Both the position numbers and the translations under genes were made by a program. From the IMG/VR virus record IMGVR_UViG_3300000756_000009, positions 17,465 through 81,464 of that record: a DNA stretch of 64,000 nt; one strand, 5' to 3'. Every line of letters begins with the position of its first letter. Position 1 is the stretch's first letter. This document shows, in pieces, positions 7,701-62,403 of the stretch. The notes under the pieces were generated by a model. That model had not been told where the DNA came from and ran no database searches. It saw only the letters and a program-made list of their open reading frames with translations. Origin of the DNA: a virus (lineage: Duplodnaviria; Caudoviricetes).

Positions 7701-7974
7701 TGGAATAGATGGTATGACACCAACTGCAACATATAGAATTGTAAAAACAGGAACAGATCAGTTTTATGCTACATATAAGTATAATACTTATCAACCTAAT
7801 GGTACATATCTTGAAAGTGATTGGAAACAAGTTCCAATACAAACTGGTAATTTTAATGTAGCTCAGGCAGTTGATGCACAAGTAGAAAAATTACAACTAG
7901 AATTTGAACAAATAAAAAAAGCGTCCACAGAAGATTATAATAGAAATTCTGCTGTTAAAGGTAGAAAAAACTAA
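4783..7974 (+). CDS. Putative virion ejection/cargo protein
   Basis: 1063 aa with a predicted helical N-terminal half (MATYVPG..PDIKPFTPD). Lies directly upstream of the virion RNAP gene, as in the crAss-like cargo gene order. Confidence 0.6.
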   Translation: MATYVPGVETYLPDIKPFTPDYKFLSAVLDVRTDKYNTNWKATNDLYNKVVYADLSRTDTKEQRDQYINQITPSLEKISGMDLSMVQNADSAKAVFAPFFEDDLIVSDMMHTSNFRKEMDYANRLMGSPDDEMRGRYSVDGVKGLQYHMEDFVNASADKAMKMGLPKFIENANIMEMSQKILGEMKPPLKMRVDHFGLNPNKTVNTEWVITEQNGNLVTGAALQYIQKALLDDPRIQRHYQNQAFVRGRDFAAEGIARGDFATKEEGQNAWASETIKRINQQNEYYLKKDIKALETAEDVNVRWDNYQKSNGIVPGSDDEKAMLGERSSYEATKAALDAKVNIQKIANAPVKDFEGTLNKAYSLLMHNNISKEMQAAAQEYGARDMEYTMKVNEYAKQQKQFQFDMGKIAQQHINAKELAAIKKKDDLDLAAAKGELVSQNPLLNILTGGGAEAGGAANADFPVDKYGKPDPNVDVVDHLTDQYVLPRTAARDLELDAATSILTFLKPVGDKDLSGNATQKYTIKVAGTNYTGSIDQIKKKLGTKTEKGGYLYWEDIDALYQEQSKILNDPKQMGSKYPGLANSKMYNDLYEKIYSPKGINTTIEVLDRTYETVINKYKNIHDQSVVLVQGEDANVKASMQEGGMPGIYKTLPSGLHRQLTKPEYIANVVELIKQGKVKNIDLIGWDTGTSSSNYMHTVKKGTGQYYTTRDGEGGSITKERQTTVTELDMAAIEAEAGHVYDKIKIKTNAAATGRLGDKYDTGTFKGTLAGRSGATDMFISPVYKAPIDPLSNTSEGQTTLAQMITQKKMLDAQGGGYTMVLGNLSDKKDKASIATDALATKAYNAYIADMTTWLGNPKRSNTAGIAPRANIIYSGTLGAAGEGNKTTAGYTIDGFNEWLSSKVKGSATEATGAAGEYGLFSKPEVDALRSGISMVFDKKQDINPRAERNQYYSNVLSAVEASPDKFAEYTYPGIDGMTPTATYRIVKTGTDQFYATYKYNTYQPNGTYLESDWKQVPIQTGNFNVAQAVDAQVEKLQLEFEQIKKASTEDYNRNSAVKGRKN

Positions 7975-31540: not shown

Positions 31541-31870
31541 ATGGTTAATTTATATAAACTATATAGATTTTTTAGACAACAGTGGCTGGGTGGTATATTA
31601 ATTATAGTTTGGTTTATTTCTGTATTTATATATCAAATTAAAAAAAAAGAGTTAGTTGAAAAAGCATATGTTTTAGAGGCTAAAGTTAAAGAATTAGAAA
31701 AAAAAGCAAATGCTGAATTAAAAAGTGTAGATAGTTTTAAAACTATTGATACACTTATAGTAACTAGAATTAAAATAATCAAACAAAAAGAATATGAAAA
31801 AATACGCATTATTGATTCCCTTCCTGTTAGTGGGCTTCAAAGCTATTTCACAGAACGTTACCCAAAGTAA
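31541..31870 (+). CDS. Putative i-spanin-like inner-membrane protein
   Basis: N-terminal TM helix followed by a coiled coil. The 3' end overlaps the next gene by 77 nt. Confidence 0.5.
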   Translation: MVNLYKLYRFFRQQWLGGILIIVWFISVFIYQIKKKELVEKAYVLEAKVKELEKKANAELKSVDSFKTIDTLIVTRIKIIKQKEYEKIRIIDSLPVSGLQSYFTERYPK

Positions 31871-40344: not shown

Positions 40345-40512
40345 TTAATTATTTACATTTAGTGCATTTGTGAGTGTATAGGCATTAGAAGTACCACTTC
40401 CTAAAAAGGTATTTGTACCATTTGTAGTACGAGTACCAAGTAATGAATTTCCAAAGATAACTCCGGTGTTGCCAGTAGTAATACTAGCATTGGAAAACAC
40501 AGGAGTACTTAA
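40345..40512 (-). other. Hidden -1 frame coding extension (55 codons) reached through slippery site A AAT TTT
   Basis: The -1 frame relative to 40509..40709 is open to TAA at 40345-40347, has no ATG, and shows A/T-ending codons. Confidence 0.6.
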
Positions 40513-40709
40513 AAATTTCTGATTACAATTTGTACATTGTCAGGATTTGTGGCATATTCTTCAGGAATTTCTCTTGTGATTTTAAATACAAGGTCTTTTT
40601 CTGATTTAGCTAATACTGTGGTTGGTTCAATGATGATTTTTGAATCTACATAAACACCATCTTTGTCATTTTCATGCAGAATTACTGCATATTGGAATAA
40701 ATTTTTCAT
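40509..40709 (-). CDS. Hypothetical 66-aa protein ending in a -1 slippery heptamer
   Basis: Ends AGA AAT TTT TAA. Confidence 0.8.
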   Translation of the reverse strand: MKNLFQYAVILHENDKDGVYVDSKIIIEPTTVLAKSEKDLVFKITREIPEEYATNPDNVQIVIRNF

Positions 40710-62164: not shown

Positions 62165-62238
62165 TTTTATTTGTTTTTAAAAGTTTCATATATGATAGTT
62201 TTCTGCATGAAGTTTTAGTAAAATTTCATGCACTTTTG

Positions 62239-62324
62239 TAGCTGGAGAGGGATTTGAACCCACACGGATATTTCTATCCAAAGGATTTTAAGTCCTTCAT
62301 GTCTACCTATTTCATCACCCAGCC
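62239..62324 (-). tRNA. trnL: tRNA-Leu(UAA)
   Basis: Folded by hand: acceptor GGCTGGG/TCCAGCT, anticodon arm AAGGA-CT TAA AA-TCCTT, long variable arm, and a GGTTCAAATCC T-loop. No encoded CCA. Confidence 0.92.
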
Positions 62325-62329
62325 AGATG

Positions 62330-62403
62330 TGATTCAATCAGGATTTGAACCTGAAACCTACGCCTTAGAAGGGCGTTGCTCTATCCAGTTGAGCTATTGA
62401 ACC
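62330..62403 (-). tRNA. trnR: tRNA-Arg(UCU)
   Basis: Acceptor GGTTCAA/TTGAATC, D-arm GCTC/GAGC, anticodon arm ACGCC-CT TCT AA-GGCGT, and T-arm TCAGG-TTCAAAT-CCTGA. No encoded CCA. Confidence 0.95.

Follow-up and report, generated by a model that had tools for sequence, protein, structure and literature searches.

A programmed −1 ribosomal frameshift very probably operates at the end of a small gene in the 64,000-nt stretch of phage DNA analyzed here (the window). The window belongs to an 81,464-bp IMG/VR virus record with an estimated completeness of 71%; GC content is ∼30%. The initial annotation had proposed −1 frameshifting at this gene, and the proposal is supported by a heptamer, a flush stop codon and an open −1 frame that are conserved in homologs. 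Three elements not mentioned in that annotation were also found, namely the covariation of a downstream stem-loop, a conserved motif near the C-terminus of the tail and homologs with naturally fused frames. The features of a canonical −1 signal are present, namely an in-phase heptamer, a 5-nt spacer (about 5-9 nt being usual), a predicted downstream structure and a conserved −1 ORF that lacks a start codon of its own.

Predicted frameshift site in the window

The gene is encoded on the minus strand and its 3′ end reads AGA AAT TTT TAA. The following features were located:

40509..40709, minus strand: zero-frame gene from the ORF listing, encoding the 66-aa short isoform and ending ...VIRNF
40512..40518, minus strand: slippery heptamer A AAT TTT (X XXY YYZ), in zero-frame phase, with the Asn and Phe codons following an Arg codon that ends in A
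40509..40511, minus strand: zero-frame stop TAA, directly 3′ of the heptamer, terminating the short isoform
40460..40506, minus strand: predicted stem-loop and candidate stimulator, starting 5 nt 3′ of the heptamer, from folding and covariation
40348..40512, minus strand: −1 frame extension of 55 codons (L-S-T-P-V-F...), with base 40512 common to the last zero-frame codon
40363..40386, minus strand: C-terminal motif N-A-Y-T-L-T-N-A, the pattern of which is conserved across homologous extensions
40345..40347, minus strand: −1 frame stop TAA, read from the ORF as the end of the putative ∼121-aa trans-frame product

The window was re-read at each of these positions. The coordinates that had been given for the 66-aa gene, for the heptamer (40518-40512) and for the flush stop were all correct, and the 55-codon open −1 frame, its stop at 40345-40347 and the TGA at 40542-40540 were each confirmed. 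Starting at the third T of the Phe codon TTT, the −1 frame reads LSTPVFSNASITTGNTGVIFGNSLLGTRTTNGTNTFLGSGTSNAYTLTNALNVNN (55 codons, LSTPVFSN...NALNVNN), and the upstream TGA closes this frame 9 codons before the slip point. The extension contains no ATG, as had been claimed, and the GTG at 40500 (extension codon 5) is its sole start-like codon.

An XXXYYYZ heptamer lies flush against the stop of 4/78 ATG-initiated ORFs of at least 60 aa in this AT-rich window, and a survey of the window showed that long −1 continuations past the ends of ORFs are usually the next gene. The evidence from the window by itself is weak and merely suggestive, whereas comparison with relatives places the arrangement far beyond what would be expected by chance.

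Two other heptamers in the window were recorded. A 109-aa ORF on the plus strand ends in the efficient heptamer C CCA AAG flush with its stop (31861-31870), with a −1 continuation of only 19 codons, and a 1063-aa ORF that ends at 7971 has A AAA AAC flush with its stop and stays open in the −1 frame for 4 codons.

Conservation of the heptamer and flush stop

Homologs were collected from viral contigs, metagenome contigs, protein collections (with DNA fetched for the distant members) and GenBank phages, and 71 unique homologous loci were retained after removal of duplicates. N-domain identity to the window was at most 95%, apart from some metagenome copies at 100%, and about 33% at the lowest. 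It had been suggested in the initial annotation that homologs be inspected for the heptamer, the adjoining stop and an open −1 frame of similar composition, and the outcome over the 71 loci was strongly positive.

The stop codon was flush with the terminal Phe codon in 71/71 loci and a perfect X XXY YYZ heptamer was present in 68/71 (AAATTTT in 45, CCCTTTT in 15, CCCTTTC in 7 and AAATTTC in 1). The three imperfect heptamers were T CCT TTT (twice) and A CCT TTT (once), each differing from C CCT TTT only in its first base. Heptamer type tracks the penultimate residue of the short protein, so that proteins ending RNF have A AAT TTY and those ending RPF have C CCT TTY. The base before AAT was A in 46/46 loci (AGA, CGA or AAA, a silent choice at the Arg or Lys wobble position), and the base before CCT was C in 18/21 loci (CGC), with CGC also present in four CCT loci found later. 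Covariation of this wobble base with the heptamer type is as predicted by selection for tandem re-pairing.

Flush stops were scored in 67 loci, with TAA in 32, TAG in 30 and TGA in 5. TAG occupied the flush stop in 30/66 relatives, compared with 13/123 neighboring long ORFs, an excess that could stem either from the kinetics of termination or from the amino acid specified at extension position 2. The flush stop is probably part of the recoding signal. A protein collection yielded 108 relatives, most of exactly 66 aa. A further search matched 218 cluster representatives (50% identity), and nearly all of those inspected end R-[NP]-F.

Evidence for coding in the −1 frame

In the main set, each of the 62 untruncated loci had a −1 frame of 45-108 open codons (median 62.5), compared with a median of 8 codons for the +1 frame; three further distant members had −1 frames of 55-66 codons. 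The initial annotation had described an uncharged, low-complexity tail rich in S/T/N/G. This description was borne out in that the extensions are S/T/N/G-rich and nearly uncharged (47.7% S/T/N/G and 10% charged residues, against 15% and 31.5%, respectively, in the N-domain).

The extension diverges much faster than the N-domain, and extension identity is only 65% for pairs of loci that are >90% identical over the N-domain. Extension identity between loci falls to about 20-30%, so the loci are not copies of one contaminating sequence. The reading frame of the extension survives many indels. A motif, [NST]-x-Y-[ST]-L-[TS]-x-A, was found in 61/62 complete extensions with its Tyr 7-15 residues before the end, and the most distant members carry the variant S-Y-x-A-A-S. 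The pattern occurs once only in the six-frame translation of the window. Codons switch inside the motif between AGY and TCN for Ser, TTR and CTN for Leu and TAT and TAC for Tyr; these synonymous switches point to selection on the amino acids and are hard to explain otherwise. Substitutions in ungapped extension pairs ranked by codon position as 3 > 1 > 2 (141/118/87), a modest signal drawn from pairs that are not independent.

The extension is probably a fast-evolving S/T/N/G-rich linker and is predicted to be disordered. A tblastn search of the extension against phage records gave no match. Matches to the extension at L017 and L018 were rejected as low-complexity resemblance inside an unrelated GC-rich ORF.

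The longest continuation was seen in a 735-kb uncultured phage (LR756501.1, L103), where locus 601-1360 holds a 33%-identity homolog with the junction CGC CCT TTT TAA. The −1 extension is 188 codons in this phage and carries a long collagen-like G-X-Y run (GTSGTSGTSGSSGTSGTDG...), and the extension of L091 has seven G-X-Y repeats. The linker might be fibrous or extended, and not simply flexible.

Natural fused homologs

Homologs in which the domain, linker and motif form one ORF were recovered by profile search (P0119, P0117, P0125, P0128, P0131, P0198 and P0225). Neither the heptamer nor a stop is present at the junction of these proteins. The fused junction of P0119 is ...KKF-LSN...SNSYTLTS... 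and the fused sequence of P0117 is ...TGTYTLTSAITN. Junctions of fused homologs were confirmed in the DNA (AAG TTC TTA AGC, CGG TCT TTT AAT and ATG TTT CCT). The DNA examined included a single contig for P0119 and two for P0117. Assembly errors are unlikely because P0119 and P0117 are each listed on two contigs from different samples.

The fused homologs argue that the long form is a real architecture of the family, and some lineages encode the long form alone. Genes downstream of the extension vary between loci (DUF932, an HNH-like gene and others), which indicates that the extension belongs to the 66-aa gene and travels with it.

Predicted downstream stem-loop

Folding of the RNA downstream of the heptamer, which had been put forward as a check in the initial annotation, predicted a stem-loop 5 nt after the heptamer. 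A 79-nt segment of the window beginning with the heptamer gave an MFE of −22.4 kcal/mol with z = −4.75, and 0/200 dinucleotide shuffles were as stable. The stem-loop (40506-40460) has an outer stem of ACUCC/GGAGU and GUGU/ACAC around an 8-bp inner hairpin. In the MFE fold of 40446-40517 (minus strand), the stem-loop is enclosed by an outer helix in which the heptamer and stop (AAUUUUUAAG) pair with CUUUGGAAAUU farther downstream.

At 43/65 loci the 65 nt after the heptamer ranked among the top 10% for stability when compared with native windows of that locus, against an expectation of ∼6.5 loci (mean z −1.6). RNAalifold, applied to 14 diverse sequences, produced a 7-bp consensus stem with compensatory changes at 7/7 pairs. 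A covariance-model alignment of 44 hits had 87.9% of cells paired, compared with 62% for shuffles and 40-54% for a slid partner, and a covariation score of 0.66 vs 0.23. This alignment was fitted to the model and favors structure, so the covariation is supportive rather than conclusive. The CC at +9/+10, which forms part of a Pro codon (extension residue 4) and lies in the 5′ arm, is 83-90% conserved in frameshifting members; Pro at this residue is not kept in the fused homologs from the profile search, which suggests a constraint at the RNA level. A stable downstream structure was predicted less consistently in the C CCT TTY clade.

Protein fold and gene neighborhood

The 66-aa N-domain was confidently predicted by AlphaFold2 to be globular, with a beta-beta-alpha-beta arrangement (mean pLDDT 92.1), and has a net negative charge. 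In the model of a fused homolog the block-mean pLDDT was 94-97 for the domain and mostly below 50 for the tail. Pfam and PHROGs returned no family for the 66-aa protein, the fused homologs or 25 distant members, and hence no match to a chaperone family. Sequence and profile searches of the PDB gave no match, and Foldseek against the PDB and BFVD gave nothing at E <= 0.001. The best VIA-align Z of 6.1 (PurS and the N-domain of a large-subunit ribosomal protein) was inside the stated noise of the tool, and matches to YkzG, phi29 p6, AcrIF9 and p56 were weak and of generic alpha/beta fold. Only viral 'hypothetical protein' clusters were matched in the ESM Atlas.

In the window the neighboring genes lie on the same strand: a MazG-like pyrophosphatase is encoded directly upstream, a dNMP kinase and DUF7695 are found on that side as well, and DUF932 is on the downstream side. 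Genes for RecA, MazG, dNMP kinase, RuvC, SMC-like ATPases and RNR lie near the gene in relatives. The nucleotide and replication neighborhood proposed in the initial annotation is thus supported by context, through MazG and dNMP kinase and, in relatives, RecA. The proximity of MazG, dNMP kinase, RecA and similar genes suggests an early or DNA-metabolism role, and from the gene context we infer that the gene is non-structural. The tail motif might dock onto a partner, with the linker as its flexible spacer.

No tRNA or Rfam family was found in the gap 3′ of the 66-aa gene. Phage tRNAs were considered as a conserved part of the system and rejected, since two relatives (87% and 100% complete) are without tRNA genes. 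The window encodes tRNA-Leu(TAA) and tRNA-Arg(TCT) at 62238-62403 (minus strand), of which the former matches the codon at which the −1 frame begins (TTA) and the latter the one preceding the heptamer (AGA). The cassette is present in the two tRNA-less relatives, and the tRNAs of the window are therefore probably ordinary AT-rich codon supplementation.

A Cys-rich HNH-like neighbor of 132-143 aa was rejected as a partner; it can lie upstream or downstream of the frameshift gene and is probably mobile, of the homing type. This HNH-like gene, with the core HHILPK...EEENIILLT..EH, adjoins the frameshift gene in six relatives (L003:3346-3744, L006:4009-4404, L007:3385-3801, L012:3380-3808, L095:2606-3004 and L097:2568-2999) and is absent beside it in the window.

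Proposed mechanism

Most ribosomes would decode ...AGA AAU UUU, reach the flush UAA and release the 66-aa globular protein, and some would slip one base back on A AAU UUU. Two routes can be envisaged. By tandem slippage, tRNA-Asn in the P site (tRNA-Pro in CCT members) and tRNA-Phe in the A site would re-pair to AAA UUU, a route supported by the heptamer covariation. By a single P-site slip, tRNA-Phe would move on U UUU with the stop in the A site; such a slip of tRNA-Phe alone on U UUY would account for the three imperfect heptamers. Both routes would lead to an identical product. After the slip, UUA (Leu) would be read and the 55 codons of the extension translated to give a ∼121-aa protein with the junction ...IVIRNF-LSTPVF... 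(junction peptide ...IVIRNFLSTPVF...). Slippage would be promoted by the stem-loop 5 nt downstream and probably also by slow termination at the adjacent stop. The phage would in this way make a set ratio of bare domain to tailed domain, and the tail motif would dock onto a partner, as in other two-isoform systems.

A more elaborate version of this mechanism combines an active role for the flush stop in the signal, a ratio set by competition, coupling to the state of the host and a tail that acts as a docking peptide. Taken jointly these elements are rather unlikely to hold, and they are offered tentatively. With the ribosome held up at the stem-loop, the release factor (at zero-frame UAA, UAG or UGA) would compete with Leu-tRNA (at −1 frame UUA, UUG or CUA), and this competition would set the long:short ratio. 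If so, the amount of the tailed isoform would be coupled to the termination or translation state of the host during infection, and Y-S/T-L-T-x-A, carried on a spacer of variable length with a collagen-like character in some members, would dock a host or phage DNA-metabolism factor.

Alternative explanations

The 3′ ORF could instead be translated separately as a ∼50-aa peptide, either from an internal start at GTG 40500 or by termination-reinitiation at the flush stop. The window does have a GTG at extension codon 5, and in a few TGA-stop loci the overlapping −1 codon is TTG. The initial annotation had itself named GTG 40500 as a possible independent start, but it is not conserved as a start among the 62 complete −1 ORFs: 33/62 have no ATG, 9/62 have no ATG, GTG or TTG, and an ATG falls within the first quarter in only 5/62. 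Separate translation would also leave the in-phase heptamer and the Arg-wobble covariation unexplained, and the fused homologs place the tail in the same polypeptide as the domain. It is considered very improbable. A similarly slight chance is given to slippage of RNA polymerase on the T-run, by which mRNAs one base shorter or two bases longer would encode an in-frame fusion. The sequence A AAT TTT T(AA/AG/GA) contains a five-T run; runs on which RNA polymerase is prone to slip are longer, at roughly 7-9 identical bases (for a review, see PMC5009743). Members with C CCT TTC TAG, in which no run is longer than three, retain the whole arrangement and so make transcriptional slippage unlikely, and the in-phase three-plus-three pattern with a structure 5 nt downstream is a hallmark of ribosomal slippage.

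The least probable explanation, to which almost no weight is given, is that the arrangement has no function. A fused ORF would have been broken by a 1-nt insertion, or would appear broken through a homopolymer assembly error, and the −1 frame would be open by chance. A fused ancestor is made conceivable by the in-frame fused homologs, and a heptamer beside a stop is not rare in the window, as the four of 78 ORFs show. Against this, 71 unique loci, drawn from samples and assemblies independent of one another, share one break point, heptamer phase and flush stop at N-domain identities as low as ∼33%. The −1 frame remains open through indels and its motif is under selection at the amino-acid level, whereas a pseudogene would gather stops as the +1 frame does. 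Judged on sequence comparison, decay or error is effectively refuted.

Comparison with known frameshift systems

To our knowledge, conserved programmed frameshifts in tailed phages have been documented mainly for tail assembly chaperones, with a few in capsid and transposase-like genes. The initial annotation had known of no earlier description of this case, and a literature search, which was not exhaustive, likewise found none of the 66-aa family or of its frameshift site. On the present sequence data the site is a previously undescribed example of predicted programmed frameshifting in phages, and it is unusual in its invariably flush stop, its two interchangeable heptamers and its predicted disordered tail with a short conserved motif.

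In T7 gene 10A/10B the shift occurs shortly before the zero-frame ORF ends, and the main short form is accompanied by a minor isoform that is longer by ∼50 aa at its C-terminus. The −1 slip takes place on G GUU UUC, in which X_XX is G_GU, and its stimulators include a distant element (PMC5009743). The site described here resembles that of T7 in having tRNA-Phe in the A site, a slip near the end of the ORF and an extension of ∼50 aa. T7 gene 10 specifies a capsid protein whose fold is known, and its imperfect heptamer does not abut the stop, whereas the present family has a 66-aa domain in a DNA-metabolism neighborhood, an always-flush stop and a local predicted stem-loop. The two are not related in sequence, fold or context.

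The tail assembly chaperone frameshift, covering lambda G/GT and its conserved counterparts, was reportedly described by Xu, Hendrix and Duda in 2004. In lambda, a short protein (G) and a C-terminally extended one (GT) are made in fixed proportion, and the added part binds a second partner (PMC5009743). The present site shares with G/GT a conserved −1 shift near the 3′ end of a small gene and a site that is kept across very divergent sequences. It differs in its flanking genes, which are MazG, dNMP kinase and DUF932 rather than a major tail protein or tape measure, and in the part added, which is a predicted disordered linker with a short motif and not a folded T domain.

Bacterial dnaX (tau/gamma) likewise combines a heptamer with a downstream stem-loop, is associated with replication and yields isoforms with a common N-terminal part (for a review, see PMC5009743). 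Frameshifting in dnaX yields the shorter isoform, with a contribution from a Shine-Dalgarno-like element upstream. At the present site it would yield the longer isoform, and the window sequence shows no evident SD-like element upstream. There is no relation in sequence or fold between dnaX and the 66-aa family.

The site adds a widespread family to these systems, with 218 cluster representatives in phages that range from 100 kb to the 735-kb phage. Gene callers annotate the 66-aa part alone and leave a 'gap' behind it, so that annotation pipelines would miss half of the protein. The family also provides a natural experiment for recoding, with two heptamers in covarying context, a flush stop, a covarying stem-loop and sister lineages in which the frames are fused, and the tail motif offers a handle for finding the binding partner of the protein. 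The 100-kb phages have Flavobacteriia-phage affinities, and the MazG region resembles that of Riemerella phages.
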